From: a virus | Taxonomy: Duplodnaviria > Heunggongvirae > Uroviricota > Caudoviricetes | IMG/VR virus record: IMGVR_UViG_3300045988_163275 | Span: 1-64,000 of that record | Direction: 5' to 3' (one strand) | Length of the DNA: 64,000 nucleotides | Translations under genes and position numbers: made by a program | Part shown: one piece after another, positions 9,329 to 45,517 of the stretch | Numbering within the stretch: position 1 is the first letter of the stretch | Layout of the letters: each line of letters starts with the position of its first letter | The notes under the pieces: model-generated | The model's database searches: none | What the model was told of the DNA's origin: nothing | The model's input: the letters and a program-made list of their open reading frames with translations, nothing else

Positions 9329-9334
9329 AGATAC

Positions 9335-9670: not shown

Positions 9671-9712
9671 CTCACATCCTTGTGAGACTGCCCCGGTCGG
9701 GGCAGTCGATAG

Positions 9713-24274: not shown

Positions 24275-24311
24275 AGATCCCTCTAAAACACTCAGAGCGC
24301 ATCCTTGCGCT

Positions 24312-24356: not shown

Positions 24357-24387
24357 GGTGTTTAAAACCGGGCTGGGGAGTATTCAG

Positions 24388-24466: not shown

Positions 24467-24469
24467 GAC

Positions 24470-29854: not shown

Positions 29855-30277
29855 ATGAAACACGTATTACTTCCTCTGGTTGCTGCCTCCGCGTTACTTA
29901 TCACTGCATGTCAATCTCGTCCTATTCCTGTCTCTGAGGCAAAGCCAGCACCGCAGACCAGAATATTCAAATACCAATCTCCGGCGGCATCGACGCTGGT
30001 GGTTATGAGAGATAAAAGCATGGTGGGCGCCGGTTGCGACGCATCGATCTTCATCAATGGCGAAACCGTTGCAAAACTGGAAACAGGTGAAAAAGTCACT
30101 TTTCATCTGGATGCCGGAGAATGGATTGTTGGCGCCTCACTCGAAGACGCTGGGCTGTGCGCACTGAATCCTGCTCGTCAGGAACGCGAGACGATTACCA
30201 AAGCTGGCGAGACGAAAGTCTTCCGGGTGTTCACCAGTAATGCTGGTGACATCGATATCTTACCAACGACACTGTGA
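29855..30277 (+). CDS. lipoprotein (candidate superinfection-exclusion protein)
   Basis: Start at MKHVLLPLVAASALLITAC: signal peptide with lipobox LITA-C; mature domain about 120 aa with 2 further Cys. Confidence 0.5.
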   Translation: MKHVLLPLVAASALLITACQSRPIPVSEAKPAPQTRIFKYQSPAASTLVVMRDKSMVGAGCDASIFINGETVAKLETGEKVTFHLDAGEWIVGASLEDAGLCALNPARQERETITKAGETKVFRVFTSNAGDIDILPTTL

Positions 30278-30281
30278 CGAT

Positions 30282-30809
30282 ATGACGAATATTACTGACA
30301 TCACCTACGGGATTCCTGCAGAAGTCTGGCCGCGCGATTACACCAACGTGGAGAAAGCGCTGATGTTCTGGCGCAAGTCTCTTATTCCTGTAAGGGTCAC
30401 GATGGAAGATGGTCAGGTGTTCTGCATGTATGTTCAGGGTCTCATGTCGTCACGCAACAAGGTCGACCTTTGCCCTGCCCCGTTCGACAAAGATAATCGT
30501 ATAAGGCTCCCACTTGAGCGAATCAGCACGATTGAATCAGGTGTGACAGAAGGCATTGCACACGACTTCACGGGTCGGACAACGATACACCCAGACTATG
30601 TGGACAATCGGCCATCTCGCCGTGATTTCTTCAAAATTTGTCGCCAGGCCCATGAGATGCAGAAGTCTATAAGGGTCTACATGGCGGATGGCCGTGAAAT
30701 TGAGGGGGTGTCTTCAGGCGTTGACGCTTGTCAGGTCACACTCAACATGGGGGACGGTAGGAAGACAGTCGCCATGTTCGATTGGGTCGAACGGATTTTA
30801 CCGTTTTAA
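30282..30809 (+). CDS. hypothetical protein
   Basis: 175 aa from MTNITDITYG; last gene before the AT-rich island. Confidence 0.4.
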   Translation: MTNITDITYGIPAEVWPRDYTNVEKALMFWRKSLIPVRVTMEDGQVFCMYVQGLMSSRNKVDLCPAPFDKDNRIRLPLERISTIESGVTEGIAHDFTGRTTIHPDYVDNRPSRRDFFKICRQAHEMQKSIRVYMADGREIEGVSSGVDACQVTLNMGDGRKTVAMFDWVERILPF

Positions 30810-32136: not shown

Positions 32137-32679
32137 TTATTGTCCGAAGTTAGCCAAAACAGACCAAAGGCAAGCGCCATAAAAGCGCCAATTTAACGCA
32201 TTTTTGCGAGTCGCAGTATCTGACCATTACCCACAATAAAAACACGTTATAGCACGTTTTACAGCGTTTTAGCGTGTTGCTTATTTTGTCGTGTCGTTGG
32301 CGTGATCCGCGCTATCCTTCGGGACGTGTCGGCAATATTGGCGCTATCCGTGGGCGCTCGCATATGATTGCCACGTTGGGCAACGTGTACGCGCTTACAG
32401 TGGTTTACCCACGGATTCACATAATCACATAGCGAAAGCTATCTGGATGGCCCAGGGGCTGAAACCCCACCAGCGCTACCCCAGCGCCGCTACGCAATTT
32501 CTGGCGCGATTCCGGGTTTCTCCCGCTCAGTTTTCTACATAAAGGCGACCCCCGCCGTTTCCCGAAAAAATCTTGGCCGTTTCCCGTCGGCTCATGAATG
32601 CGTTCCTCGCCGTTTCTGAAAATTTCCCTGCGGCAGCTGGTGGCTATAGAGAAAGGGCCGTTTCTGGCCCTCTTCTCAG

Positions 32680-33162
32680 TTACACGCCATCAAGGATGTG
32701 GATGCGGTTGCTTGCGTATACATTCAGCATAAAGTTAGCGCAAAACAGTTTCCATGTGTCAACGCCAGCGGCATACGTAATGTTTTTGCATTTTATTGCA
32801 TTGTTGGCGATCCACATCCCCTGCGATACTGCTTCATCGTCGGAAAATTTGAACGACGATTGAGTTTTAATCCAGACAGAAATCTGCGTAGCGAACTCAA
32901 TCAGCTTGGACTGGCAGAATCGCCCGGAGCGCACCGGAAAGACGAACGTTCCGAATCCAGAATTTACCACATATGCTTTCTCAAATACCCGCGAGTAACG
33001 ACGATTGCCAATGATGTCGCGTGCAATAATGCATTTTTCTTGTGCTGACAGTTCTACCGTCTCATTGTCGCGCCATGCACCAAGTACTCGTTTTTCAATG
33101 TCAGAGAACGTTACAGCGATATTGCCATGTGCGGGTGCGTTTACAGTAGCGATAAAATTCAT
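32680..33162 (-). CDS. hypothetical early protein
   Basis: 160 aa; conserved promoter plus palindrome module directly upstream. Confidence 0.45.
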   Translation of the reverse strand: MNFIATVNAPAHGNIAVTFSDIEKRVLGAWRDNETVELSAQEKCIIARDIIGNRRYSRVFEKAYVVNSGFGTFVFPVRSGRFCQSKLIEFATQISVWIKTQSSFKFSDDEAVSQGMWIANNAIKCKNITYAAGVDTWKLFCANFMLNVYASNRIHILDGV

Positions 33163-33179
33163 GATTAATTACTTATCGT

Positions 33180-33240
33180 AAATAACAAATTGTTTTCTTG
33201 TTGGTGTTAATTATCGTTGTACGAATAAGGCGTCAAAGTG
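33180..33240 (-). promoter_or_regulatory. promoter plus AAACAAnTTGTTT palindrome module
   Basis: Minus strand: CTTTGACG-N16-GATAAT-taacaccaacaag-AAAACAATTTGTTA, upstream of 32680..33162. Confidence 0.55.
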
Positions 33241-33366
33241 GAAAGTTGCGGTAGCCGGACGGGAACAGGTGGGTTTGTCGGTTGCCTGGAGGTAAGAGGT
33301 TGGTGTTTTTAGCCTGCGGGAAACAGGATGGTCATTTAAGGCCACCAGCATTGGTGGCCTTACTCT

Positions 33367-33648
33367 TTAGTGGAGCAGACCGATGTCGATGGTATCCCCT
33401 GAATCATCCACACGGATCATCAGCATGGCGAAGGCGTTTAGTGGATAGCTTGCGTGCCATTCAGGGAAGCGGTCATCTCGCATGAAGTCGGCAATGTCGT
33501 AAACGCAGCCCTCAAAGTGGAAGAATCGCGTGCTTACCTGCTCGTCATATTCCACATGATCCATTTCTTGCTGTTCTGTTTCCGGCAAGTCCAGCCATGA
33601 TTCAAGGAATACATTTTGTGCTTTAGGGGTAATGGTGAAATCAGTCAT
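33367..33648 (-). CDS. hypothetical early protein (acidic)
   Basis: Start at MTDFTITPKA with RBS GAGGA; promoter plus palindrome module upstream. Confidence 0.45.
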   Translation of the reverse strand: MTDFTITPKAQNVFLESWLDLPETEQQEMDHVEYDEQVSTRFFHFEGCVYDIADFMRDDRFPEWHASYPLNAFAMLMIRVDDSGDTIDIGLLH

Positions 33649-33664
33649 GAGCATATCCTCACTG

Positions 33665-33722
33665 CGTAAACATATTGTTTTCTTGTTGGTGTAATTATCG
33701 CAGTGTAGATAAGGCATAAAAG
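33665..33722 (-). promoter_or_regulatory. promoter plus palindrome module
   Basis: Minus strand: ...GCGATAATtacaccaacaagAAAACAATATGTTT, upstream of 33367..33648. Confidence 0.55.
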
Positions 33723-33983
33723 ACGTTAATACAGGCTGAATACACAAGAAAGGTTCTGGAAGTTGATAGCCAGGTTTCAAACTAACCTTCGGTTATTAAA
33801 AGTCATTTAAGACCACCAATGCTGGTGGCCTTAATAATTATCGCCCGATTACGCTAAGGATCTTTTCCTCAACTGATTTGTTGTTGCGACTAAACTGCCT
33901 TGCGTATCTTATGACAGAAGAGGCGTTTCGCTTTCTGACCATCTCGGCTCTCTCCTTCAGGCGTTTCTTGAAATCGCCCATAT

Positions 33984-34358
33984 TTACCACCAGGCGCAGA
34001 AGGTCAGTCTATTATTGTGAAAGTCGTGGTTCTTAATCAGATCTTCCACAATCTCTTTCAACTCCCCCACATCATGCCAGTAACCTTCATCGTACTCCTG
34101 ACTGCCGAAGAAAAAACCTTCCTGGGTAGGCAAGTACTCTTCGCAATTACTTTCGTTTATGTGCATCAAATGAGCCTTCAGAAAACAAATGTCATTCATC
34201 GTTAATTCTAAAAGCTCACAATTTTCGACTTCACCTACGTTGCGCTCCATCCACCCAACGAGCGCATTGAACTTACGGAAGTAAGCAACCTGCTTTCTGG
34301 ATGCCTCGTTATTCAGATCGTTTTTTGGCTGCGTCTCGATGTAGATATCAAGCCCCAT
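33984..34358 (-). CDS. hypothetical early protein
   Basis: Start at MGLDIYIETQ (RBS AAGGAAACC); palindrome copy upstream. Confidence 0.4.
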   Translation of the reverse strand: MGLDIYIETQPKNDLNNEASRKQVAYFRKFNALVGWMERNVGEVENCELLELTMNDICFLKAHLMHINESNCEEYLPTQEGFFFGSQEYDEGYWHDVGELKEIVEDLIKNHDFHNNRLTFCAWW

Positions 34359-34414
34359 GATGGTTTCCTTATTAAGTTGCTTCAGTGAAATCATTTTCAC
34401 AAATCAGATAAGGC

Positions 34415-34435
34415 AGAAAACAAATTGTTATCGGG
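34415..34435. promoter_or_regulatory. AAACAAnTTGTTT-type palindrome copy
   Basis: GAAAACAAATTGTTAT upstream of 33984..34358; flanked by the recurring GCCTTATCT block. Confidence 0.4.
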
Positions 34436-34475
34436 CATAAGAAAATGGCGCGGGGTACGCGCCATTCAAAGAGGA

Positions 34476-34871
34476 TTAAGCGAATACGCTTTCAGGGACA
34501 ATGGTGTCGATCTTTTCGCCGGAGATTATTCGCAGACCGTGTTGTCCCATCCAGGTACTATTGGTATTTAAACTCGATGTATAAACCGCATCGACCTTTT
34601 TCATCAAATTTTCAAACAACGTCTGATCCGCGCCACGGAAATGAGTTTCCAGTTTTATCAGTAAAGGGTCAGAAGCATTACTGATGCTTTGGTAACGCAC
34701 CGAATATTTCCCCTTTGTCGCCTCGCCGGTGCGAGTTAAGGTACTGGTGTGAACTTCTTCGCCGGAGGCATTATCGCGTAGCACAATTGTAATTTTTGCA
34801 ACTTTGTCTCCATTTTCCGTCTCTGATGCATAATACATATCCAGGGTCAGATTTTCGCGTTTAACGGTCAT
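34476..34871 (-). CDS. hypothetical early protein
   Basis: 131 aa; TAAGTA-type palindrome upstream. Confidence 0.4.
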   Translation of the reverse strand: MTVKRENLTLDMYYASETENGDKVAKITIVLRDNASGEEVHTSTLTRTGEATKGKYSVRYQSISNASDPLLIKLETHFRGADQTLFENLMKKVDAVYTSSLNTNSTWMGQHGLRIISGEKIDTIVPESVFA

Positions 34872-34908
34872 TTCACTCTCCTTAGTGTTTAATTTTTAAT
34901 TTTATTAT

Positions 34909-34927
34909 CATAAGTAAGTACTTACAA
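34909..34927. repeat. TAAGTA-type palindrome
   Basis: cataagtaagtacttacaat; upstream of 34476..34871. Confidence 0.5.
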
Positions 34928-34992
34928 TACAAAAAAGCCCCGAAGGATTGGCGGGGCTGTCGTACATTCGACTAACTACTGCTTGCACATGT

Positions 34993-35304
34993 TTAAGCTA
35001 CCGCCTGAACAGACGCTCGTTGGATCTCTTGTTGGGCGACACGGTTGGCTTCCATCAGCGCCAGTTCAAGCTGGTCCTCTGGCCACATTTTCTGGACCGA
35101 CATCCACCCTCTTCCACGCTGGCGACGAACTACCATCACATAGCGCGTAAAATTGCCCGCGTCGAAGGTAATGGCTTTTTCACGAAACAGACGGATAGAA
35201 GTCCCATTCGCTACGATATCCAGCAATGTGAGATGCCCCATTAAGGTTGGTTTTTCTTTTCTATCCTGGCCTTCAGCAAGACCCAGCACCAATGAAGTAT
35301 TCAT
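34993..35304 (-). CDS. hypothetical early protein
   Basis: Start at MNTSLVLGLAEG (RBS GGAG); promoter plus palindrome module upstream. Confidence 0.4.
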   Translation of the reverse strand: MNTSLVLGLAEGQDRKEKPTLMGHLTLLDIVANGTSIRLFREKAITFDAGNFTRYVMVVRRQRGRGWMSVQKMWPEDQLELALMEANRVAQQEIQRASVQAVA

Positions 35305-35311
35305 CACCACT

Positions 35312-35385
35312 CCGTAAACAAATTGTTTTCTCAATGGCGTAAATAATACCAGTGTAAAAACGGCTACAAAGCATATTGCTCAGGC
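35312..35385 (-). promoter_or_regulatory. promoter plus palindrome module
   Basis: Minus strand: TTTGTAGCC...TATTATttacgccattgagAAAACAATTTGTTTacGGAG, upstream of 34993..35304. Confidence 0.5.
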
Positions 35386-35464
35386 ACATGAATTATCTAA
35401 AGGTGGTTCTGCCCTGCGGCTACAGAGAAGTTAAGCCAGCAGGCGGTGCTGGCTTTGGTTGGGC

Positions 35465-35794
35465 TTACGCGAATAACTCAAGGAATTCCTGCACGTCCCA
35501 ATGCTGGACAAGGTGAAGATAGAGCTTAGAAATCACGTCATTCTCGCTATCGCATGTGAAGTAGTACTTCTGGCTGCGGTTGTATGTGTCCACACAAAAT
35601 TCGCTCATATCCATAAAGTCAGCATCTTCACCCATGTCGCAAATAATCAAAGCAGGAGCATCATCACGAGTCATCAGCTCAAGCACCCAGCGCGAATTGA
35701 TCAGCGTGGAAGACCAACCTTCTAACTCATAAAACTGGTCAAACTCTTTTTGAGTCATTTTCTTGATTTGGTTGATGTCGATATTTGCAAACAT
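35465..35794 (-). CDS. hypothetical early protein (acidic)
   Basis: Start at MFANIDINQ (RBS AAGGAT); promoter plus palindrome module upstream; acidic (DMGEDADFMDMSEF). Confidence 0.4.
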   Translation of the reverse strand: MFANIDINQIKKMTQKEFDQFYELEGWSSTLINSRWVLELMTRDDAPALIICDMGEDADFMDMSEFCVDTYNRSQKYYFTCDSENDVISKLYLHLVQHWDVQEFLELFA

Positions 35795-35802
35795 AAAGCA
35801 AT

Positions 35803-35882
35803 CCTTAAACATGTTGTTTTCTGAATTGCGTAAACAATACCAGTAAGAAAACGGCCACAAAGTATATCGTTACGGTGCTGCG
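35803..35882 (-). promoter_or_regulatory. promoter plus palindrome module
   Basis: Minus strand: ...TATTGTttacgcaattcagAAAACAACATGTTTAAGGAT, upstream of 35465..35794. Confidence 0.5.
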
Positions 35883-35933
35883 CTGCCCCGGAGGTTAATA
35901 GCGACAAAAGCCACCGTGCTGGTGGTCTCACTC

Positions 35934-36152
35934 TTAATCTTCGTCGTCCGGGAACTCGCTGTGTACCGCGTCCACCAGCTCCCGCTTTTCATCTTCACTA
36001 AGCAGGTGCCAGATATCCTTCCCTTTGGGCGATTCCCCTTCTGCCGGGACGAACGACCACAACTTGCGGTACAACTCCGGCCCCACTGCATCCAGACACT
36101 CAGCCAGGGAATCCACGCCCCACACCTCAACCGTCACAGGCATCTTAATCAT
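35934..36152 (-). CDS. hypothetical small acidic protein
   Basis: 72 aa, very acidic C-terminus (LLSEDEKRELVDAVHSEFPDDED); RBS GAGGA; promoter plus palindrome module upstream. Confidence 0.45.
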   Translation of the reverse strand: MIKMPVTVEVWGVDSLAECLDAVGPELYRKLWSFVPAEGESPKGKDIWHLLSEDEKRELVDAVHSEFPDDED

Positions 36153-36181
36153 CTCTTCATCCTCACTTCGTTTCTATAACG

Positions 36182-36242
36182 TCTAAATATGTTGTTTACT
36201 TGTTGGTGTTATTATCGCAATAAGACAAAGGCGAAAAAGGAT
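36182..36242 (-). promoter_or_regulatory. promoter plus palindrome module
   Basis: Minus strand: CCTTTTTCGCCTTTG...GCGATAATaacaccaacaagTAAACAACATATTT, upstream of 35934..36152. Confidence 0.55.
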
Positions 36243-37382
36243 TTTATGTCGTGAAAGCCAGGCTGGGCAGTGAATATCCGGGAACGACACGGGAACCAGT
36301 ATTTACGATATTCTGCTCTACGCGCGCCGCAGGGCTGGTGGGCAGAATTTTCTTCTCCCCGAAAACCTACTGAAATCGCTTGAGACCCGAGGATGGTCTG
36401 GCAGACTGGAGTTCAGCAGCTGCACGAGAGGGAACGACACTCCCCCGCGATTTTCAGGCGAGTGAAGAGTAAGGCGCACTCCCGAAGATTTCCCGCACCG
36501 CTCCCGCAGTCGTCTCTCACTCTGTACCGGGATGTACCCGTTTCCCGACCGGCAGCCAGCCTTTTCCCGGTTCGTATAGCGAGATTCCCACCGTTTCCCT
36601 GAAAAACCTCCAGCCTTTTCCCTGCGGCGACGTTCCCGTTCCTGAAAAGGGACATGGCCTTTTCCCTGGATGGCCCGAAGGCTGACCGAAGGGGTGGATA
36701 GGGACGTTACGGGGGATGAAAGCTATGGCTTGAATTTATACGAAGAAAGTGGCGATACCCCTCCTTCCCTTCCCACTTATACCTCCCACGAATTTTCTCT
36801 CTTATGTGGGCATAAATCTTCTCTCTGATAACGCTCAATACGGCGACTATTCCTGTGGGTGAAATGGGTGGTTTGTTCTTTCTACCGGCATATGTGGTTT
36901 CGTTCTTCTTGAGGTGGTTCTTCTCTGTGTTTTCGTCAGGGTTGTTCTCGTTGTTTTGGTGATTGTTCTTCTCTGTGTATGGAGTAATGGCAGGTGGGCG
37001 ATTCCTTTCGTTATTGTATTTGAGTTGTTTGTCTTGAGAGCGTGAAAGGCTTTTGTGGTTATTTGTGTATTGAGTAATGGCGTTTCCCCGCGAATGTTCT
37101 GTTTCGTGTCTTTGGGGATTGAGGGAGTCCTTGCGGTAACAGGCTTCGTTAGAGTTTCAGTGGTTCTGGTGTTTATTCGCTGTTTGGGGAATGGCGTGTA
37201 GTGGGTATCGCATGTATGAATGTTTCGAGTTGCCTGTGAAAGTTAGGTTGGTTGTCCGGTAGCCTGGGAAGAAGAGGTGGGTCTTTTCAGTAGCCTGCCA
37301 TAAAGAGGTTGGTTGTTTTTGGGAATGTGGGTAATGGCGTCTCTGGGTTTCCTGTGGGTGTGGTTAGCTTGTTTTCTTGTGT

Positions 37383-37403
37383 CTGAAAACAACTTGTTTA
37401 GAT
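37383..37403 (+). promoter_or_regulatory. plus-oriented palindrome copy inside the gene-free region
   Basis: ttgttttcttgtgtctGAAAACAACTTGTTTAG on the plus strand; no obvious downstream protein gene. Confidence 0.35.
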
Positions 37404-37741
37404 GTCCAATATAACGCAACGGGAGCGCTTCTGAGCGTGTCTGTTTTTGGGTGGTATCACGAGTCGTTTTTGACGTTTTGGTCGCAGGGAGATGGATTCT
37501 GGTACGCTGGATTTGGGTATAAGAGATGGCGTGCGAAAACATCAACTTTTTAGACCAAATCAGGGGAAAGCGTTGACTTTACGTTGATGTGTTATTTATT
37601 TGTTTTCTTATGGGTGTAATTAGCTTAAATGCCTTGTCACGCCTGGGATTGAGTGGGGTAGGGTGGTGGGGAAAGTGGCGATCAACGGACTCTTATAGAA
37701 ATCCTCAATTTGTGACCGCCAATATCAACGAGTTGCAGCCG

Positions 37742-38311
37742 TTAGTTGTTCAGATAGGCATCCGGAACGCGCACATAAAAGTTTCTTTCGCCGGTCAGTT
37801 CCAGAGTAACGTTTATGTCGTTGCCGTTATCCAGCGTAGCCGTCGCTTTATAGAACTTGTCCGTCACCTTGTCCTGAATTGTCACCTTCATACATTTCGG
37901 CGCTGTGGTTCCGTTATTCTCTTTCAGAATGGTCGTTACGAGAGGACAAGCCGCTTCTTCAAGAGCAACCTCTTCCTGGTGTGGGATACCGATGAAGATG
38001 TTACCAGCAAGCAACGCGACGATTACGATAAAAGGAAGTCGACTGCCTTTTGTAACGGTGGCACGTTTCCAGAGATAGACCGGAAGGAGAAATACTCCCC
38101 ACAGGATGGCCGGTGGTTCATACCCTGCATCAGACAATGCCATTCTGTCAGCCACCAGAAAGCCGAGTCCAGCGACTCCACCTATCACTATTGCATAATT
38201 CAAATACTCATCTGGCGGTACTCCAAAGAAGAGAGGCAGTAAAGCTAGAAGCCACGCATAAGCATTATTCAGAGGTTTTGTTTGTTGGTTCTGGGTTTCC
38301 ATCACATCCAT
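37742..38311 (-). CDS. integral membrane protein (candidate exclusion protein)
   Basis: Three predicted TM helices (WLLALLPLFFGV, AIVIGGVAGLGFLV, ILWGVFLLPVYLW, FIVIVALLAGNIFIGI) and a C-terminal soluble domain; last gene of a three-gene early operon. Confidence 0.5.
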   Translation of the reverse strand: MDVMETQNQQTKPLNNAYAWLLALLPLFFGVPPDEYLNYAIVIGGVAGLGFLVADRMALSDAGYEPPAILWGVFLLPVYLWKRATVTKGSRLPFIVIVALLAGNIFIGIPHQEEVALEEAACPLVTTILKENNGTTAPKCMKVTIQDKVTDKFYKATATLDNGNDINVTLELTGERNFYVRVPDAYLNN

Positions 38312-38387
38312 TCCATCAGATTAAAAAGCGGTACTATGTTACCAATTTTCTTCGCTTATATGACATGATTACTCAACGAGTGGGCGA

Positions 38388-38708
38388 TCACCATTCCCAT
38401 GCAGGTAGCCCATCCACCAGCTCGGCGTCGCAATCGAAGTGAACCACGTCAAAGCCGTCATCCAGTATGGTCTGTATGTTGGAGATCGCCTCTTGGGAAA
38501 TGCCGTACTCACGCAGTTCTTCCTTCCAGTCATTCCCTCGCATTCCAGCACGAACAATCCAGCCGTACTGTGTACCGTGTACCCAATTCAACCCGCGATC
38601 AGTAAGTGGGTCGAAGCAGGCAATGGGTAGCCGTTCTGAATCCGCTGCCGTGACGTGGGCGGTGCTGATCACCGCCGTCTTATACGATTCGGTGATTTTC
38701 AGCATCAT
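38388..38708 (-). CDS. hypothetical early protein
   Basis: 106 aa, start/stop coupled to the upstream gene. Confidence 0.45.
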   Translation of the reverse strand: MMLKITESYKTAVISTAHVTAADSERLPIACFDPLTDRGLNWVHGTQYGWIVRAGMRGNDWKEELREYGISQEAISNIQTILDDGFDVVHFDCDAELVDGLPAWEW

Positions 38709-38938
38709 GCCTTCTCCTTTGGAAACAGAATGTTGGCCGTGTCAGAAATGACATCCCAATTCACGCCGACGCTGGCGTCATGGCACTCTTTGATTTTTCG
38801 CAAAACCTGAACGCACTGTTCGTCAGTCAGGTCTGGTCGCCCTTCACCTACATCTTCCTTGTGCCACATCACCATCAGCAGCGGCTCGTCTTCTGGGTAG
38901 TTCTCCAGCTTTTCGATAATTTCTTTCGCGGTTCCGAA
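38705..38938 (-). CDS. hypothetical early protein
   Basis: Start at MFGTAKEIIEKL with RBS AAGGAG; promoter plus palindrome module upstream. Confidence 0.45.
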   Translation of the reverse strand, partial: FGTAKEIIEKLENYPEDEPLLMVMWHKEDVGEGRPDLTDEQCVQVLRKIKECHDASVGVNWDVISDTANILFPKEKA

Positions 38939-38949
38939 CATGATTAACT

Positions 38950-39012
38950 CCTTAAACAATTTGTTTTCTTATTGGTATTATTATCTCAAATAACGAAAGG
39001 CAGAAAACAAGA
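38950..39012 (-). promoter_or_regulatory. promoter plus palindrome module
   Basis: Minus strand: CCTTTTCTGCCTTTCG...GAGATAATaataccaataagAAAACAAATTGTTTAAGGAG, upstream of the 38938-37742 operon. Confidence 0.55.
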
Positions 39013-39026
39013 TGTTTAAGGGATGA

Positions 39027-39350
39027 CTAGGTGAGTTTGAAGTCGTCTATGTCATCAACAAACTCCATATACCTGGCTTCGACACTCGACAATCTGATCA
39101 GATACGCAAGCCCGTAACTTAGTGAAGTGGGTTGCTCCAGCACAAATTCGAACCCATCCTCATGCGTTTTACCAAGCCAGAACCCCCCACCGTATTCTTT
39201 TTCACGTTGGAAGAAAACGAACTGTCCGGGTATTAGGTGCTTGAGTGCTTCGCCCCTATAGACGATCACATATTTAGAATTCTTGCTGCCCATTGCTCGC
39301 CTCGCAATACTGCACATATAAACAGTGGTATTTATTACGGTACTGGTCAA
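39027..39350 (-). CDS. hypothetical protein
   Basis: 107 aa ORF (true start may be internal MGSKNSKYVIVYRG); palindrome copy upstream. Confidence 0.35.
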   Translation of the reverse strand: MTSTVINTTVYMCSIARRAMGSKNSKYVIVYRGEALKHLIPGQFVFFQREKEYGGGFWLGKTHEDGFEFVLEQPTSLSYGLAYLIRLSSVEARYMEFVDDIDDFKLT

Positions 39351-39377
39351 CTTTACGGGTTAATTGAATAACAAGAT

Positions 39378-39400
39378 GGTGAAAACAATTTGTTTTGGCG
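39378..39400. promoter_or_regulatory. palindrome copy in the region between genes 39350 and 39481
   Basis: GAAAACAATTTGTTTTGG. Confidence 0.4.
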
Positions 39401-39480
39401 CTTGAGATTTTGCAAATCGCACCTACATGGAAAACGGCAATTTTTGAAACCTGATTTGACCCATGTGAAAGGAGGAAACG

Positions 39481-39684
39481 ATGAAGACCTATGATCGCAA
39501 CCGTAACACTATCACTACCGGCAGCCGAGTGATGGTGGCAACGAATGGTGCAACGGGAGTCATCAAGGAAATCTGCGGAGAAGGCAAATCAGAAGAACAA
39601 TTACGCCGCTCTGACTGCGTGTCTATCGAAGGTGTGGAAGATCTGTTCTGCCCAATGGATTTAGTTCGCCTGGGATTCCAATAA
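39481..39684 (+). CDS. hypothetical small protein
   Basis: 67 aa with strong RBS AGGAGG; terminated by palindrome plus hairpin. Confidence 0.45.
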   Translation: MKTYDRNRNTITTGSRVMVATNGATGVIKEICGEGKSEEQLRRSDCVSIEGVEDLFCPMDLVRLGFQ

Positions 39685-39704
39685 TTACACCACTAATTAA
39701 ACAA

Positions 39705-39745
39705 ATTGTTTAAGGCCACAAATAATGGCCTTATCTGGCTTACGG
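39705..39745. terminator. palindrome plus hairpin between convergent genes
   Basis: TTAAACAAATTGTTTAAGG followed by hairpin AAGGCCACAAATAATGGCCTT, between 3' ends of 39481..39684 (+) and 39740..40444 (-). Confidence 0.4.
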
Positions 39746-40444
39746 AACAGCAGTAATCAGATCGCAAATGCCTGTTTTAGTTAAATCACTATTTAGCTTC
39801 TGAAAATTGGCATTCAGCATTGCGGTATGTATTCGATTCTCAAGTTCAAAGAAGAGATCGATCTTGCCCTCTTTGGCTGCCACCTTCTTCCAAATATTCA
39901 CCTGGTCATCTGCGATACGACTTGCGCAGGTGAACAAGAACGAACTCCCTCTGGGAAGGGATGTCGTGCTGTAGTATTCACCGTCAACTTCAATATACTT
40001 AGCTCGGAATGACTCCAGAGTTAGCTTTTTACCGCTCTCAGCCTGCTTTGTGTCTGCCTTGCTTGTCTTTTCCTGAACTTCAGGCTGTTTCTGCACAGGC
40101 TTTGGTGTCTCATTGACCACCGCAGTGCTGGCCGAACCATCCAAACTCTTGAGGCCATTAATTTGGATTAGATAAGCCAACTCCAGAGTCTTATCACCAG
40201 TGAGTTTTCCACGCATACTTACCCATTGACGCTGAACCGTCTTTAAGGCGTCTGCGTCCCCCGGGTTTGCTTTGAGTGCGTTGGAATAGGTAGAGCTAAG
40301 TTGTTCGTCTAATTTTGACAGGCGTTCGTTATCGCAGATTTTGTGTTCGATTTCTGCCGAAGCCTTTTGGCAGTCAAAGCTGGCTGCAAATACAGCCGGC
40401 GATGCCACCAACAATGATGCCAGTAGGATATTTTTCATATTCAC
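39740..40444 (-). CDS. secreted protein with lysozyme-inhibitor-like (LprI/DUF1311-type) N-terminal domain
   Basis: Signal peptide (MNMKNILLASLLVASPAVFA), then FDCQKASAEIEHKICDNERLSKLDEQLSSTYSNALK...QRQWVSMRG, resembling the Cys-containing DUF1311 pattern; family assignment from memory. Confidence 0.45.
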   Translation of the reverse strand: MNMKNILLASLLVASPAVFAASFDCQKASAEIEHKICDNERLSKLDEQLSSTYSNALKANPGDADALKTVQRQWVSMRGKLTGDKTLELAYLIQINGLKSLDGSASTAVVNETPKPVQKQPEVQEKTSKADTKQAESGKKLTLESFRAKYIEVDGEYYSTTSLPRGSSFLFTCASRIADDQVNIWKKVAAKEGKIDLFFELENRIHTAMLNANFQKLNSDLTKTGICDLITAVP

Positions 40445-40476
40445 TCCATAAATATAAAAGCGCCTGACTATAGCAC

Positions 40477-40692
40477 TTAACCGATTGCTTCTCTCATCTG
40501 ATTGTGAAGCTCTTTCAGCCCATTACGTACCGCGTTCATGATACGTTCCAGGTATTGGTATCTGGGGTTTGGCACCGTTGGCCAACCGGCATACCACGGA
40601 TCGTCACCAAACAGACTCAGCAGTTCGTTACCGACACCGAAACAGCAGCAACTTTCTTTTACGTCATCAGCGTTTTCTGCCTCGTCCCACAT
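40477..40692 (-). CDS. hypothetical small protein
   Basis: 71 aa ORF in the early cluster. Confidence 0.3.
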   Translation of the reverse strand: MWDEAENADDVKESCCCFGVGNELLSLFGDDPWYAGWPTVPNPRYQYLERIMNAVRNGLKELHNQMREAIG

Positions 40693-40738
40693 ATTGCGGG
40701 CCTGCTCTGCGTCGATTTCTCTCTCTCCCTGCGCAACT

Positions 40739-40978
40739 TTATGATTTCGGATTTGACGAAAAGCAGGTTTGCGTCGTTGTCATCGTCGACCGTACTGAAG
40801 TGGCACACTGAATTTGGCCGTCTGTAATGGGCAGATCCGGCAACTGTTTAAAAACTTCCATCTGCTCATGGATACGCAGAAACCACCTTGCCAGCTCCAT
40901 CTGCTCACCGCGGGTGAGGGGATTATTCAGCGGGGACTTAACAAAAGCGGAGACTCGCTCGACAAGCAGATCATTCAT
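40739..40978 (-). CDS. hypothetical small protein
   Basis: Start at MNDLLVERVS, ATGA-coupled to the upstream gene. Confidence 0.35.
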   Translation of the reverse strand: MNDLLVERVSAFVKSPLNNPLTRGEQMELARWFLRIHEQMEVFKQLPDLPITDGQIQCATSVRSTMTTTQTCFSSNPKS

Positions 40979-41664
40979 GCCGCGCACCTCTCTGCTTTCT
41001 CCTGCAATTCGCGAACGAACTCGACCAAAGAGCCACCTGGCGGGATCTGGCATTCCTCAACCAACTGGAAGTATATGTCTGCGGCCGCGCGTGTGTTCGA
41101 GCCTTTGTTTAGCTGCTCTTCGCGCAGCGCATCACGTTCATTAATCAAACGGACGCACTCGCCGTTACGCTGATCCACAACGGCCTCAAGTTCAGCGATA
41201 CGTTCGCCAGGAGTCTTACCTTCTTTACGTTGAATGGTGACGGTAAACTCACCCATTTCAGGAACGTCGTACCCCAGCTCCAGGTAGTTTCTGGCCCCGC
41301 TACGAACAAACTCACCGGCAAACATGGTTGCGAACATCGCAGAGGCCATTTCACCTTTAAACAGAGACTCCAAATCTAACGGAGTACCCGCAGCCAGAGC
41401 CGTTTTTTCTGTATCAATTGCAGACATGAATGCATCAAATTCACGAGCACGTTTTTCCAGGTCTCTCCATTGCTCGCTCCAACGTTTAGCAACGAAGTCT
41501 ATGAATGTTTTCGCGGATTCATCATAATCCCCTTCAAACTTAACAGTGCCTTTGTCAATGATGATCTGGTCTACTGCTTCCTCTGCATAACCTCTCATTA
41601 CAAATTTGAAAGGAAAGTCGGCATGGCTTTTGACGTTAAAACGCTCTAACGGAAGATTGCTCAT
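40975..41664 (-). CDS. hypothetical protein
   Basis: 229 aa; TAAGTA-type palindrome upstream; no recognisable motif. Confidence 0.45.
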   Translation of the reverse strand: MSNLPLERFNVKSHADFPFKFVMRGYAEEAVDQIIIDKGTVKFEGDYDESAKTFIDFVAKRWSEQWRDLEKRAREFDAFMSAIDTEKTALAAGTPLDLESLFKGEMASAMFATMFAGEFVRSGARNYLELGYDVPEMGEFTVTIQRKEGKTPGERIAELEAVVDQRNGECVRLINERDALREEQLNKGSNTRAAADIYFQLVEECQIPPGGSLVEFVRELQEKAERCAA

Positions 41665-41706
41665 GTGTTTTTTCTCTTATCATATAGTCACTATATTCTT
41701 ACATAG

Positions 41707-41728
41707 ATTAGGTAAGTATTTACCTCTC
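41707..41728. repeat. TAAGTA-type palindrome
   Basis: attaggtaagtatttacctctc; between the methyltransferase stop and 41664 start. Confidence 0.5.
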
Positions 41729-43412
41729 ATTTAACGCGTTTAAAAACGTATACGCTGACAGTAATCCCGGTGTCTTCAAACATGTTAGTAAACGACTTCC
41801 CTTTGGCATAAACGTAATTATCCAGCGTCATCCAGTTTAGAATTGGCGCGTCGCCCGGCAGCACTGCTACCAGACGCCCACCGACTTTCAGATGTCCCAG
41901 CGCGGCCAACGTGTGCTCTCTGTGACGGCCAAGAGAGTAGGGCGGGTTCATGACGATTTTGTCGAACTGATAACCTGCGTTGTCCTCAGACCACTTCATG
42001 AAGTCGCAGCAGACCGTATTTGTGTACCCCTTGCCAAGCAGGATATCAGCGAAGAGAGGTGCGACTTCTATGCAGGTAACGTCTTCCGGATTGGCGTCGA
42101 TGCAGGCCAGCAGATCTCCGCGCCCGGCTTCAGGCTCCAGCAGCTTCTCACCTGGCTTCAGCTCGATGGCTCTGGCAACGTACTCCGCTATCAAACGCGG
42201 GGTAGGGTAGAACTGGTGTGATTTTGTATCCGGTATTAAGCCGGTGGCCACAATCGTATTGAGCGTATGGCCGATCTCATACGGGAACTGCCAGTGCTTG
42301 TTCTCCTGCACGCCGCCAATAAAGCTCAGTGTACGCTCCAGCTCTTCCACCTGTGACTTCTGAAGACCGGAATCAGAGAAGTACCATACGCGTTTGTCAT
42401 TGCCAGATCGCCCGTCGCGAAGCGCAGTACGCACCGGCTCGGAGATCGTCTTCTGGATTAACCCGAACTGTTTTGGTGCCCGTGTTTTGGGCGCAGTACG
42501 ACATGGAGCCGGGATTGCAGCGGGCATACTGTAAGCCAGCACCTCATTCAGCTTCCAGGCTACGTCAGGATGTATTTCAAAGTGAACGTTGCCGTTCTTA
42601 AACATCTTCACACGCATCAGGTTTCCGTCGACATTCATCCAGTCGCCGGTCTGGCAGTCATTTGCTCGATACGCAGCTGACAGCATCTCGGCCGTGCGGT
42701 TGATGGTGATAAATTCTTTGTGTGCAAAGAAATGCAACATGACGCGCAGGTCGTCTATGTAATCCTCTTTCCGGTAGTTAACGCTGACGCTGTCCCGCCA
42801 GAAATCGGAAATGCAGTCGGCGATGATCAGACGCTCGCTGAAGCCGTTCGTCTTATTGGTCTTGTGAGCAGGACTCAACGCCTTAAACAAGCCATACACG
42901 CGCTCAGAGAGATATTTGTGCCTGTCATTCAGCAAATTAAGCATCGTTGGTATGACCGTTTCTGCTTTGAACTCAGGTACACCAACGAACTCTTTAACCT
43001 TCATTTGATAGCCAGTTCTGTCAGTCTTGATCGTTTCCTGCTTGCCCTCGATAAACTGTTCACGCCACTCGTCGCGGCGGGATGCTGGCATGATCAGCAG
43101 AACGTTGGTCATATCCGTGACCTTCTTCCAGTACTCGGCCCAGATATTTTGTTTCACCCATTCCAGGTCGACTTTGTCCAGCCAGGTTCTGTTAAAGCGT
43201 GTGCGCTCGTCGTCCGGCCGGTGGTTAAGTCGCAGTAGACGGTTAATCATGTTGTGGCGTTCGTCGCCATAAACGAAGTCGTGAACCTTATTCATGAACG
43301 CAATCTCTTTCTCGCATTCGGCCACAATTTCGTGGATAACATTCATTTCCTGCCGGTAGTCAATACCGGTGTCTGGAGTGATAGAGTCAATGATGGAAAG
43401 GGCTGTATTCAT
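41727..43412 (-). CDS. DNA methyltransferase (N6-adenine/N4-cytosine type) with large N-terminal domain
   Basis: C-terminal methyltransferase motifs: motif I (LLEPEAGRGDLL) and motif IV (VMNPPYS); about 390-aa N-terminal region of unknown function; true ATG at MNTALSIIDS; promoter plus palindrome module upstream. Confidence 0.7.
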   Translation of the reverse strand: MNTALSIIDSITPDTGIDYRQEMNVIHEIVAECEKEIAFMNKVHDFVYGDERHNMINRLLRLNHRPDDERTRFNRTWLDKVDLEWVKQNIWAEYWKKVTDMTNVLLIMPASRRDEWREQFIEGKQETIKTDRTGYQMKVKEFVGVPEFKAETVIPTMLNLLNDRHKYLSERVYGLFKALSPAHKTNKTNGFSERLIIADCISDFWRDSVSVNYRKEDYIDDLRVMLHFFAHKEFITINRTAEMLSAAYRANDCQTGDWMNVDGNLMRVKMFKNGNVHFEIHPDVAWKLNEVLAYSMPAAIPAPCRTAPKTRAPKQFGLIQKTISEPVRTALRDGRSGNDKRVWYFSDSGLQKSQVEELERTLSFIGGVQENKHWQFPYEIGHTLNTIVATGLIPDTKSHQFYPTPRLIAEYVARAIELKPGEKLLEPEAGRGDLLACIDANPEDVTCIEVAPLFADILLGKGYTNTVCCDFMKWSEDNAGYQFDKIVMNPPYSLGRHREHTLAALGHLKVGGRLVAVLPGDAPILNWMTLDNYVYAKGKSFTNMFEDTGITVSVYVFKRVK

Positions 43413-43421
43413 GATTGCACC

Positions 43422-43482
43422 ATTAAACAAATTGTTTTCTTATTGGTGTTATTTTCTCAAAGCTAAAAAGGCGTAAAAGCAG
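43422..43482 (-). promoter_or_regulatory. promoter plus palindrome module
   Basis: Minus strand: GCTTTTACGCCTTTTT...GAAAATAACACCAATAAGAAAACAATTTGTTTAATGG, upstream of the methyltransferase gene. Confidence 0.55.
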
Positions 43483-43552
43483 CATTCACAGGCGTTGCAG
43501 CTGATTTAAGACGTAAAAAGGGGGCTTTCGTCCCCTGTACGCAGGTGAGAGA

Positions 43553-44125
43553 TTAGTGGTGTACGTGCTGCGTTTTGTACGGCTGTTTGTTCAGGTTGTG
43601 GCGGTGCATAAGCTCGCGCATCATGTCTTCAAGACGGCTCTTGGTGTCGTCAAGCTGGTCGGCCATTGCCCCCAGCAGCTGGCGAAGGGCCATCGGATCG
43701 TCGCTGTTCAGCTCAGGCATTTTGAACCCAGCCTGGGAAGACATCAGTTTGAAAGCGGCCAGCAACATCGCCAGAGAAGACTTCAGCCCGGCGATTTCAT
43801 GATCTTTGCTGGCGTTGGTTTCATCTGCCTTGACTGAATCCAGTGAGCACTTCGGCTTGCTTACCATTTCCAGAGTTGCCTGAAGTTTGTCGGCGCGTTC
43901 TTTCTCTTCCAGATACGCTTCGCCGAAATGACGCGCCAGCATCACAATTTCAATCGGATCATCAATCATGCTTGAGAACTTGAGAACGCTGAAAAGGCGG
44001 TCAATAGGGGAGGCGTCGTCTTCGTGACCAACCACAAGACCCATGATCTCAACCAGTTCGGCCGCACCAACTTTTTTAATCACGCTTTCAACTTTGGCAT
44101 TAGTTTTTTTGCATTTTTCACACAT
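43553..44125 (-). CDS. hypothetical protein
   Basis: 190 aa, N-terminal CxxC (MCEKCKK); promoter plus palindrome module upstream. Confidence 0.45.
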   Translation of the reverse strand: MCEKCKKTNAKVESVIKKVGAAELVEIMGLVVGHEDDASPIDRLFSVLKFSSMIDDPIEIVMLARHFGEAYLEEKERADKLQATLEMVSKPKCSLDSVKADETNASKDHEIAGLKSSLAMLLAAFKLMSSQAGFKMPELNSDDPMALRQLLGAMADQLDDTKSRLEDMMRELMHRHNLNKQPYKTQHVHH

Positions 44126-44141
44126 GTGTTCTTCCTTATGC

Positions 44142-44205
44142 TTTTAAACAAGTTGTTTTCTTAATTGTTTAATTGTCTCAAATTCTATGATGATGTGAAG
44201 AGTTG
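44142..44205 (-). promoter_or_regulatory. promoter plus palindrome module
   Basis: Minus strand: ...ACAATTAAACAATTAAGAAAACAACTTGTTTAAAAG, upstream of 43553..44125. Confidence 0.5.
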
Positions 44206-44333
44206 CATTAAGGCGAAAAGACACGCAAAAGGAAAAATCAGGCATACCAGACATTTATTTAAAGTGGCATTCATAGCAGAATGTTCTCATTGCCGAAGTT
44301 CTATTCAGACGTCAGTCCCTAAGAGAGAGCAAA

Positions 44334-45293
44334 ATGTTTGGTAATCTTTTCAAAACGGAAGAAACTAAGGCCCGGGAGGGCTTGGAGTCTCATTATCAGA
44401 AAGTCATGAGCTTCGTTGCTGAAAATGATCTACATGAAGCATGGGAAAAAACACGCAATATCATTTTTCGAAATATGGAAGTTAGAAGCTACATCACGCA
44501 AAACGGCGCGTTCGATCGTAACGATTTTTACTATAAGTCAGCCAAAGAGAAGCTTATTCAAAGCGCCTTCACTTCATACCTACTCATAAAAGTTTTACCT
44601 CAGTTCTATGAAATGCATCTCACCACTTTGAAAAGAAAAGAAAAAACACTCACAACACAGGATGAATACGGGGTCTGGAACTTTGACAAGTGGTTTGATG
44701 AAGTAGACTACTTTTATGACAAGGTAGTAAAAGAGAAAGTTTACGATTGGATCGAAGAGAACACAGGCCGGCTCAACAACCTTTGGTTGGCAGAGTCGGA
44801 GGACAAGAATGCCTGGGGGCGGCCAGTTTACTTTAAATTCCAGTTGCCTGAACAATTTGATCGCTGCGCAATAAATCACATTATGACGGTGGTAGACAAT
44901 ACACCAGAACCTGAATTACCTGAGTACACTTCGCTACTGACCGGGCACGAATATGAGCATTTTGTCGCTGGGGAGTTTATGAAGTATGGATCCGACACCC
45001 AAGTAACTAAGGGCAGCGGCGATCACGGTCTGGATATCCTTGTAACCTATAGAGAAGTTCGAATGGCTGTTCAGTGCAAACACTACCAGTCTAAAGTAGG
45101 CAACAAAGCTATTCAGGAAGCATTTTCCGCGAAACAGTTCTACGATTGCTCCCTCGCAATAGTAGTCAGCAACAGCGAGTTTACCCCTCACGCCAGACAA
45201 GCAGCCAAAAAACTGGACGTTTATCTGTATCACCATGAAGATATACACTTAATAATAGACGCCATTAATAATTGGCTGGATGCGCCGGAGTGA
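44334..45293 (+). CDS. Mrr-type restriction endonuclease domain protein with novel N-terminal domain
   Basis: C-terminal PD-(D/E)xK Mrr-catalytic pattern (GHEYEHFVAGEFMKYG...GSGDHGLDILVT...VQCKHYQSKVGNKAIQEAFSA...VVSNSEFTPHARQAAKK); aromatic-rich N-terminal region of about 200 aa. Confidence 0.65.
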   Translation: MFGNLFKTEETKAREGLESHYQKVMSFVAENDLHEAWEKTRNIIFRNMEVRSYITQNGAFDRNDFYYKSAKEKLIQSAFTSYLLIKVLPQFYEMHLTTLKRKEKTLTTQDEYGVWNFDKWFDEVDYFYDKVVKEKVYDWIEENTGRLNNLWLAESEDKNAWGRPVYFKFQLPEQFDRCAINHIMTVVDNTPEPELPEYTSLLTGHEYEHFVAGEFMKYGSDTQVTKGSGDHGLDILVTYREVRMAVQCKHYQSKVGNKAIQEAFSAKQFYDCSLAIVVSNSEFTPHARQAAKKLDVYLYHHEDIHLIIDAINNWLDAPE

Positions 45294-45328
45294 AGATTGA
45301 GGGGCTAATGCCCCCCCCTATTCGTCGG

Positions 45329-45517
45329 TTAAAAGAACCCGAGGATGCCGCCCACTGGAACAATGAAAACTCCCACGACACGCGCAAGTGTCACTCCGGC
45401 ATGAGACTGGAGATCGCCATCGTTCACAAGTTTCACCAGATTCATGATCCAGCCGCTAAACAAAAAAACGGTAAAGCCAACAATCATCAAGGTGAATTTC
45501 TGGAAGTTCCATTTCAT
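45329..45517 (-). CDS. small two-helix membrane protein
   Basis: 62 aa with two hydrophobic helices (FTLMIVGFTVFLFSGWIMNLV; VVGVFIVPVGGILGFF); ATGA-coupled to the upstream ORF. Confidence 0.4.
   Translation of the reverse strand: MKWNFQKFTLMIVGFTVFLFSGWIMNLVKLVNDGDLQSHAGVTLARVVGVFIVPVGGILGFF

Follow-up and report, generated by a model that had tools for sequence, protein, structure and literature searches.

A hyperplastic accessory segment of an SSU5/pHCM2-type phage-plasmid, probably built of small expression cassettes behind a shared promoter-operator module

Positions 32680-44125 of a 64,000-nt stretch of Caudoviricetes DNA (IMG/VR record IMGVR_UViG_3300045988_163275; the whole stretch is referred to here as the window) carry 19 called open reading frames (ORFs), all on the minus strand except ydfZ. 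We propose, with a probability of roughly 60%, that this region is a hyperplastic accessory segment consisting of approximately 12 self-contained expression cassettes. A cassette comprises one to five small genes and is usually closed by a strong hairpin terminator; most cassettes start with a predicted promoter followed by an operator-like palindrome, and this promoter-operator module is found at the points where the region differs from its relatives.

Identity and spread of the element

The window is, as judged from gene order and nucleotide identity, an Escherichia coli phage-plasmid of the SSU5/pHCM2 type. Region 32680-44125, which corresponds to positions 80-95 kb of Salmonella phage SSU5, shows 87.7% identity to SSU5 over 69% of the region length and 97.8% identity to E. 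coli plasmid pLR-46_1 over 98% of the region length. The flanks carry, in SSU5 order, the terminase, tail genes, ParB-like genes, a DEAD-box helicase, RNase H and Dam, and it is this order together with the identity of the region that assigns the window to the SSU5/pHCM2 type. Matches to the region were found in 782 plasmid records, 752 of which were typed as non-mobilizable by MOB-suite, and in 347 of 5426 complete E. coli genomes. Phage-plasmids of this type are common in clinical Enterobacteriaceae and include elements that carry resistance genes.

The predicted promoter-operator module and the two palindrome families

Two palindrome families were distinguished, type A, a 13-bp palindrome (AAACAAnTTGTTT), and type B, a perfect palindrome (GTAAGTACTTAC). 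With at most one mismatch allowed, type A was found at 14 sites in the window compared to 0.38 expected, and 12 of these sites are inside the region; a 13th site in the region carries two mismatches. Type B was found at 12 sites in the window compared to 0.5 expected, and 0 of 100 shuffles reached the count of either family. In gene direction, the type A module is composed of a weak -35 element, a TGn-extended -10 element, 14 nt approximating ACACCAAyAAGA, the palindrome, a Shine-Dalgarno (SD) sequence and the ATG. It is approximately 45-70 nt long and present in at least 10 copies, the extended -10 element (GATAAT, TATTAT or GAAAAT) is found in eight of nine modules, and the centre of the palindrome is located approximately 15 nt past the predicted transcription start.

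The genes (g1 to g18, with g2b) and their putative control regions are listed below with the length of each product in amino acids (aa), the isoelectric point (pI), the family in the PHROGs database and the ratio of nonsynonymous to synonymous substitution rates (dN/dS), where these are of note; "module" stands for a predicted promoter-operator module.

32680..33162, minus: g1, 160 aa, pI 9.0, phrog_1641, dN/dS 0.12-0.19; type A palindrome 20 nt upstream
33168..33240, minus: g1 module, type A palindrome at 33183-33195
33367..33648, minus: g2, 93 aa, pI 4.1, net charge -15, phrog_1845, uncharacterised family of about 90 aa, dN/dS about 0.1
33653..33721, minus: g2 module, palindrome at 33668-33680
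33838..33981, minus: g2b, 47 aa, basic; starts 3 nt past the g3 stop; its homolog in the relative Cyrano, CYRAN_109, is annotated
33984..34358, minus: g3, 124 aa, pI 4.6, phrog_7971
34390..34445, minus: predicted g3 promoter region, type A palindrome at 34418-34430, inverted and at the -35 position
34476..34871, minus: g4, 131 aa, phrog_2473
34895..34930, minus: predicted g4 promoter, type B palindrome at 34914-34925
34993..35304, minus: g5, 103 aa, pI 9.8, phrog_5125
35301..35376, minus: g5 module, palindrome at 35316-35328
35465..35794, minus: g6, 109 aa, pI 4.2; cassette missing from SSU5
35792..35860, minus: g6 module, palindrome at 35807-35819
35934..36152, minus: g7, 72 aa, pI 4.3; predicted five-helix bundle with an acidic tail; not in Cyrano
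36170..36238, minus: g7 module, degenerate palindrome at 36185-36197
36250..37700, no strand assigned: conserved non-coding stretch with repeats and two orphan type A modules
37742..38311, minus: g8, 189 aa, membrane protein (three to four hydrophobic segments); closes the g10-g9-g8 unit
38388..38708, minus: g9, 106 aa, pI 4.4, DUF5983 (YeeW-like), 7e-22
38705..38941, minus: g10, 78 aa, pI 4.6, DUF1380 by its RefSeq name
38939..39022, minus: predicted g10 promoter, between two type A palindromes at 38954-38966 and 39005-39017
39027..39293, minus: g11, 88 aa, phrog_2100
39367..39400, no strand assigned: putative divergent control region of g11 and ydfZ, type A palindrome at 39383-39395
39481..39684, plus: g12, YdfZ family, 67 aa, 9e-30
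39681..39715, plus: reverse-oriented type A module overlapping the ydfZ stop, antisense into g13 and just beyond the g13 terminator
39740..40438, minus: g13, 232 aa, signal-like N-terminus ending VFA|AS, LprI/DUF1311 (3.7e-5, above the gathering score)
40477..40692, minus: g14, 71 aa, remnant (C-terminal part) of a phrog_3451-type gene; the equivalent in a relative is marked as a pseudogene in RefSeq
40739..40978, minus: g15, 79 aa, remnant (N-terminal part) of an Eaa-like gene
40975..41664, minus: g16, 229 aa, pI 4.75, phrog_8364
41700..41735, minus: predicted g16 promoter region, type B palindrome at 41712-41723
41727..43412, minus: g17, 561 aa, DUF4942 and N6-adenine DNA methyltransferase domain, dN/dS 0.03-0.06
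43410..43478, minus: g17 module, palindrome at 43425-43437
43553..44125, minus: g18, 190 aa, phrog_5508
44131..44199, minus: g18 module, palindrome at 44146-44158; boundary of the Mrr insertion

The type A palindrome is found 11-32 nt upstream of the ATG in g1, g2, g5, g6, g7, g10, g17 and g18; the distance is 59 nt for g3 and 85-89 nt for the divergent genes g11 and g12, while g4 and g16 (which heads the unit g16-g13) carry type B in the promoter instead. A preliminary description of this DNA, made from the letters alone, had given most genes an individual promoter plus palindrome; this is correct for most of the approximately 12 predicted transcription units, but not for g2b, g8, g9 and g13-g15, which are operon-internal, and the palindrome, although real, is neither confined to the region nor of one type. 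The reverse-oriented module at 39681-39715 may be an antisense promoter or may remain from a cassette that was lost. Strong hairpins follow the stops of g1, g2, g2b, g4, g5, g6, g7, g13 and g18; the conserved palindrome is itself not a terminator, and the nine hairpins differ in sequence except for the pair after g2 (33336-33362) and g2b (33807-33834). These two hairpins are near-identical (27-nt arms, 96% complementary to each other) and therefore terminators may also travel with cassettes.

Both palindromes were also found across the genomes of relatives. The SSU5 genome carries 20 type A sites compared to approximately 0.4 expected; 15 of these are in the homologous segment and the others precede terS (two sites), parA, dnaB, SSU5_049, SSU5_063 and nrdB. 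The terS-like gene of the window has the same double type A site, at 24315 and 24340; a hairpin with AAGGAT in its loop also precedes this gene (24290-24500, minus strand), and a long AT-rich hairpin is located further upstream. In the Klebsiella element pJN2-26, 11 type A sites were found in 18.9 kb, including sites before non-homologous TerB and GFA genes, and a strict variant of the module precedes at least 15 unrelated ORF families among the viral-contig matches listed, some of which are chance matches. The type B sites given by the motif scan of the window (2513, 15816, 22362, 27894, 34914, 41712, 46158, 47353, 48411, 53254 and 59961) precede structural, DNA-metabolism and two accessory units, and SSU5 has 19 overlapping type B matches (approximately 17 sites, extended consensus approximately AAAAATAAGTAAGTACTTACTTATCA) before structural and DNA-metabolism genes. 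Mapping onto the Cyrano genome placed type A at 18 sites and type B at 20. From this distribution the module is taken to contain a genome-wide, operator-like site that is not special to region 32680-44125; type A sites are dense in the region because it is made of single-gene units.

Modules as probable recombination joints

Alignment of the region with SSU5 or Cyrano showed that the homology blocks break at modules, namely at 33721/34407, 35375/35792, 36175 and 44161. The cassette of g3 and g2b is missing from SSU5, and g8 stands in place of SSU5_106/107. The g5 and g6 modules form a direct repeat around g6 (83% over 69 nt), and SSU5, which is without g6, has a single chimeric module with an upstream flank resembling the g6 module and a downstream part resembling the g5 module. 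Similarly, Cyrano, which is without g7, has a g7/g6 chimeric module. These alignments identify the modules as probable recombination joints, at which the chimeras mark the gain or loss of single cassettes.

At the same sockets, relatives carry Ant or Rha regulators, an HD hydrolase, a GIY-YIG nuclease or TerB. A gene encoding an Mrr-type (type IV) restriction endonuclease (44334-45293, plus strand, within 44162-45330) is inserted in the window exactly at the boundary of the g18 module, a position taken by an Ant anti-repressor in SSU5 and by a Rha regulator in another relative; therefore, a defence gene occupies the same variable socket.

Gene content and selection

The preliminary description had reported about 17 small genes, and the coordinates it gave as examples match the 19 ORFs exactly or within one start codon; nearly all of the genes are indeed short, with the exception of the 561-aa methyltransferase g17. 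An ortholog in SSU5, Cyrano or pJN2-26 was found for 17 of the 19 ORFs, and none was found in these three elements for g8. Where orthologs had a measurable dS, dN/dS ranged from 0.03 to 0.57 and was mostly below 0.25, which indicates that the ORFs are real genes. By contrast, g14 and g15 are remnants of a deletion that took out the equivalents of SSU5_098-100. All products except the 47-aa g2b match a PHROG family over their full length, and all of these families but that of the methyltransferase are annotated as "unknown function". Four products have Pfam matches (g9, DUF5983; g12, YdfZ; g13, LprI/DUF1311; g17, DUF4942 and an N6-adenine methyltransferase domain); g10 carries the name DUF1380 in RefSeq, and no Pfam match was found for it. 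Databases already list the genes, as hypothetical proteins.

Strongly acidic products are enriched in the region. A pI below 4.7 was found for 7 of the 19 products (g2, g3, g6, g7, g9, g10 and g14) compared to 3 of 62 greedy ORFs outside the region in the same window (Fisher p = 0.001), and the net charge is -15 over the 93 aa of g2, -13 over the 109 aa of g6, -11 over the 72 aa of g7 and -13 over the 124 aa of g3. Acidic products, as well as membrane or secreted products, had been proposed earlier and both are borne out, the latter by the hydrophobic segments of g8 and the signal-like N-terminus of g13, which is predicted to be secreted. Taken together, most of the cargo appears to consist of small, often strongly acidic, lineage-restricted proteins under purifying selection, the remainder being a predicted orphan N6-adenine DNA methyltransferase, a probably secreted LprI-like protein, a putative membrane protein, YdfZ and two gene remnants.

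The methyltransferase g17 contains both the EPEAGRG (motif I) and the NPPY (motif IV) motifs and matches the N6_Mtase domain, mad2, and type II and orphan methyltransferase models. No nuclease matches were found for its neighbours g16 and g18, and the Mrr gene is a variable insertion separate from g17; g17 is therefore predicted to be an orphan methyltransferase, since it is without a partner nuclease.

The earlier proposal that the products are ORFans without recognisable motifs holds only in part. At the level of a word-index search, g2, g6 and g7 are confined to SSU5-type elements, but PHROG families (all products but g2b), the four Pfam families and DUF1380 do cover other products. The word-index search returned 35 clusters for g2, 38 for g7 and 10 for g6, and all but a few weak partial matches showed at least 62% identity; the g6 family is very narrow, with none of its 10 clusters below approximately 74% identity. 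Matches with an organism name are Enterobacterales, and those contigs whose length allows a judgement are of phage-plasmid size (approximately 100-115 kb). Strict ORFan status was lost for g2 in an exhaustive profile search, in which 84 representatives of its family were found, approximately 75 of them remote relatives of about 90 aa that share the pattern ITTNNxPR...FFRYxGxxYxLxDFMR...FSGxLI...GDxVxVG; no Pfam family was found for these remote relatives. One remote g2-family gene lies within positions 7949-14525 of a 62-kb ENA metagenome scaffold (L012) among approximately 30 small unannotated ORFs, and this array also encodes a DUF5983-domain protein, RdgC and two DUF7609 proteins. It appears that these families circulate jointly among unrelated elements, in their small-gene regions.

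AlphaFold predicts a five-helix bundle for g7 with good confidence (predicted local distance difference test, pLDDT, 88.5), and its model of g2 is weak (pLDDT 70). A fold search with these two models found no significant match among solved structures, and a phmmer sequence search of the PDB with g2, g6, g7 and g17 gave nothing meaningful; a multicystatin match of g6 in this search had no passing stretch and was discarded.

The conserved non-coding stretch

Between g7 and g8, approximately 1.4 kb (36250-37700) shows 84% identity to SSU5 and 72% to Cyrano. ORFs are annotated across this stretch in relatives. Mismatches to SSU5 are, however, spread evenly over the codon phases (69/62/64) and the indels are 1, 10 and 11 nt long, and the stretch is therefore conserved but non-coding. 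It has a strong strand skew and contains the following features.

36538-36666: GGGAAAMGG repeats, five copies
36916-36978: 24-nt tandem repeat
37223-37319: repeats of about 30 nt
37387-37399 and about 37594-37630: two orphan type A modules

Shorter copies of the repeat types in this stretch occur near g1, as two GGGAAACGG repeats downstream of the gene (within 32440-32660) and as two CAGGCTAC-type repeats of about 30 nt in the g1-g2 gap (33275-33338), where SSU5 has the "repressor-like" SSU5_116. An Rfam scan of the region, including the stretch at 36250-37700, returned no match. The stretch might function as an origin or a centromere, or be transcribed into a long RNA.

Expression of the homologs in Cyrano

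Published RNA sequencing (RNA-seq) data for Cyrano in strain LF82 (S1 table, PMC9928086) support low expression of the region homologs in the lysogen and an earlier rise. In an overnight lysogen culture in lysogeny broth (LB), the homologs of g1-g6, g2b apart, were at 0.6-2.6 times the prophage background, and the only region homologs above the authors' cutoff were CYRAN_109 and CYRAN_102, each at approximately 6 times background (PMC9928086). CYRAN_109, the homolog of g2b, differs in this from its upstream neighbour. The median log2 expression of the region homologs was 3.3 in overnight LB and 5.6 at 1 h in macrophages, at which time they were the most responsive group (structural genes, 3.8; DNA-metabolism genes, 4.1). 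Moreover, most genes linked to type A were at background in overnight LB and had risen by 1 h in macrophages, by which time the first genes among them had reached a plateau, whereas genes linked to type B continued to climb until 6 h (MB6-MB1 of +0.31 versus +1.27, p = 0.011). The data fit, weakly, an early class that is repressed in the lysogen. The likeness to phage early regions that had been suggested for this DNA is evident in its plasticity, while the early expression in Cyrano agrees with it only weakly.

A cassette model and its candidate regulators

Taking the anatomy, the junctions and the Cyrano data into consideration, each cassette would be transcribed by host RNA polymerase from its extended -10 promoter, and a dimeric DNA-binding regulator of the element would sit on the palindrome, which lies either just past the start or within the -35 region, and hold the units near background in the plasmid prophage. 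Release of this repressor would switch on all type A units together as a first wave, and a second control would then bring on the type B units. As both palindromes are found genome-wide, the cassettes would be plugged into the global circuits of the element. To judge from the sequence junctions, single cassettes are added, deleted and swapped by homologous recombination between modules of approximately 70 nt. The collective role of the cargo would most likely be one of accessory host interaction and of establishment as infection or induction begins, some counter-defence included.

Several points weigh against this model. The roles of promoter and operator are assigned from position and conservation. 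Breakpoints would be intergenic under selection anyway, and the direct evidence for joints consists of two chimeric modules. The early-rise contrast (MB1-BLB) was not significant (p = 0.135), and the RNA-seq data come from a relative, with two replicates, low counts and a small induced subpopulation. Although parA has a type A site, the gene is active in the Cyrano lysogen; the site therefore does not always silence. Finally, 13 of the 19 products are without an assigned function.

Candidates for the regulator are an FljA-like protein (30240-30809), a 77-aa phrog_900 protein and the homologs of CYRAN_45 and CYRAN_98, the latter two outside the window. The FljA-like protein, encoded on the plus strand, belongs to the family annotated as "repressor of phase-1 flagellin" (PF03614, 1.9e-95) and is kept in SSU5, Cyrano and pJN2-26. 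Klebsiella is not known to have flagella, and maintenance of the protein in a Klebsiella element would therefore suggest a role intrinsic to the element. Neither palindrome is present in the fliC leader of E. coli K-12, however, which leaves the link between FljA and the palindromes unsupported and the protein a candidate only. The phrog_900 protein (24506-24736, minus strand), encoded upstream of the terS-like gene, has what we take, by eye, to be a winged-helix look. A global regulator similar to ParB or KorB was considered and is disfavoured, since Cyrano expresses neither of its two ParB-like genes in the lysogen, which speaks against a role as lysogenic repressors.

Alternative explanations

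The strongest alternative, a plausible one that we nevertheless hold to be rather unlikely, is that several cassettes encode inhibitors of host immunity, with the acidic products g2, g3, g6, g7, g9 and g10 acting as DNA mimics or other anti-defence proteins expressed on entry. The enrichment of acidic products is real, the genes, although under purifying selection, come and go as whole units, as would be expected of arms-race cargo, an orphan N6-adenine methyltransferase is part of the array, and the Cyrano homologs rise early. In addition, DUF5983 and DUF4942 recur in CP4-type islands, which also carry ArdB/KlcA-type genes, and the remote g2 relative on an unrelated metagenomic contig is found beside a DUF5983 protein and RdgC. 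On the other hand, the products show no sequence, profile or fold similarity to known anti-defence proteins; searches of Pfam, NCBIfam, PHROGs, PADLOC and the PDB (sequence and fold) matched no known anti-defence protein, so that homology, structure prediction and fold comparison gave no such match for any product searched. Because mimics have diverse folds, mimicry is compatible with a missing fold match. Net charge alone is a weak argument, as small phage accessory proteins are often acidic, and some members are evidently something else. This is the case for YdfZ, the secreted LprI-like protein, the membrane protein, the remnants and the 1.4-kb non-coding stretch. The Mrr gene at the same hotspot is a defence gene, and the shared module also precedes terS, parA, dnaB and nrdB and is therefore no marker of an anti-defence regulon. 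The only established link to restriction evasion is the orphan N6-adenine methyltransferase. For small, acidic, early accessory proteins beside such an enzyme the proposal is a reasonable prior, and charge and context were all the positive evidence found for it.

It is unlikely that the cassettes are morons, i.e., lysogenic-conversion or defence cargo that helps the carrier cell through superinfection exclusion, envelope protection or restriction. The architecture would suit such cargo, since each cassette has its own predicted promoter and terminator and is present or absent between relatives, and both a secreted LprI/DUF1311 protein and a membrane protein are encoded. An Mrr-type nuclease at a module boundary, the GIY-YIG nuclease, HD hydrolase, TerB, Ant or Rha of relatives at the same place, and expression of the g2b homolog and CYRAN_102 in the lysogen would fit as well. 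Most homologs, however, are near prophage background in Cyrano, where toxin-antitoxin morons are expressed 10-70 times higher and CYRAN_43 more than 700 times higher, and the methyltransferase domain and Mrr are the only PADLOC matches.

A bolder extension of the cassette model, which we regard as rather improbable, is that the whole genome of SSU5-type phage-plasmids is run by two palindromic operator families (A early, B later), that the type A module is a socket by which single-gene counter-defence cassettes pass between Escherichia, Salmonella and Klebsiella elements, and that the regulator could be an FljA-family protein. If this were true, "phase-1 flagellin repressors" would be recast as descendants of phage-plasmid regulators.

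We give little credence to the idea that the conserved element acts as RNA, with a leader of approximately 30 nt (ACACCAAyAAGAAAACAAnTTGTTTAAGGAG) serving as a shared 5' untranslated region for a translational repressor (e.g., the FljA-like protein) or as an enhancer. The palindrome is located between the predicted start and the SD sequence and often abuts the latter, the sequence 5' of the palindrome is conserved too, and a conserved FljA-family protein is encoded 2 kb away; FljA binds the fliC mRNA leader. As a signature, however, a perfect 6+1+6 palindrome points to a dimeric DNA-binding protein, and as RNA it would form only about five weak A-U pairs. In addition, the palindromes of g3 and the upstream one of g10 are in the -35 region and thus outside any transcript, and the fliC leader of K-12 is without either motif. 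Lastly, an artefact of chance reading frames and a compositional motif accident can practically be dismissed, even though the 1.4-kb stretch is non-coding where relatives have annotated ORFs and two ORFs are remnants, given a dN/dS well below 1 for almost all ORFs, full-length PHROG matches for all products but g2b, and motif counts unmatched in 100 shuffles.

Comparison with known systems

If the cassette model is correct, the module as both regulator and joint would explain the turnover of accessory genes, and the ORF that follows a module would be a sequence handle for finding cargo. The cargo itself is a bounded list of candidates for screens of anti-defence or host-takeover functions, and the two palindrome families are a starting point for studies of regulation in SSU5-type elements. 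In the literature searched, neither palindrome family was found described, nor was module-mediated shuffling in SSU5-type elements or any function of the region.

The region resembles the settings of Ocr (T7), ArdA and ArdB/KlcA in its small acidic products, probably early expression, an adjacent methyltransferase and variable gene content, but its products differ from Ocr, ArdA and ArdB in showing no homology or fold similarity to them. Unlike plasmid leading regions, it has no Pfam or NCBIfam matches to ssb, psiB or ardA, while oriT was not searched for. The idea of a leading region was rejected; in the one plasmid examined, out of several large plasmids with the same match, a distant DUF1380-like homolog lies by repB among hypotheticals and not among ardA, psiB or ssb, and we found no mention of the DUF families of the region in the leading-region paper of Samuel et al. 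2024 (PMC11541004).

Lambdoid morons are likewise autonomous promoter-gene-terminator units that are present or absent between otherwise collinear relatives. They are typically expressed from the repressed prophage, however, whereas most homologs of the region are near background in the lysogen.

With the C1 operators of P1 and the stoperators of cluster A mycobacteriophages, the palindromes share the use of one short site in many copies by the promoters of small units. With sites dispersed in this way, one regulator could silence most of the prophage genome. The sites of P1 and L5 are, however, asymmetric, whereas those described here are perfect palindromes. Furthermore, there are two site families here, the repressor is a predicted one, and parA, though it has a site, is expressed in the lysogen.

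T4-type phages already provide examples of hyperplastic regions with promoter cassettes; in them, promoter-early stem-loops (PeSLs) were described as mobile regulatory cassettes (Arbiol et al. 2010, PMC2839356). Like the modules described here, PeSLs are short conserved intergenic units with a sigma-70-type promoter that lie beside the small, non-essential and functionally unassigned genes of a hypervariable region, and recombination between units accounts for insertions, deletions and replacements between close relatives (PMC2839356, PMC4122927). The PeSLs differ in that their hosts are virulent T4-like phages and not a temperate phage-plasmid, and in that they combine a promoter with a terminator stem-loop, where the modules of region 32680-44125 would combine a promoter with a 13-bp palindromic, operator-like site. 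Moreover, in the SSU5-type elements the same site is used genome-wide, core genes included.

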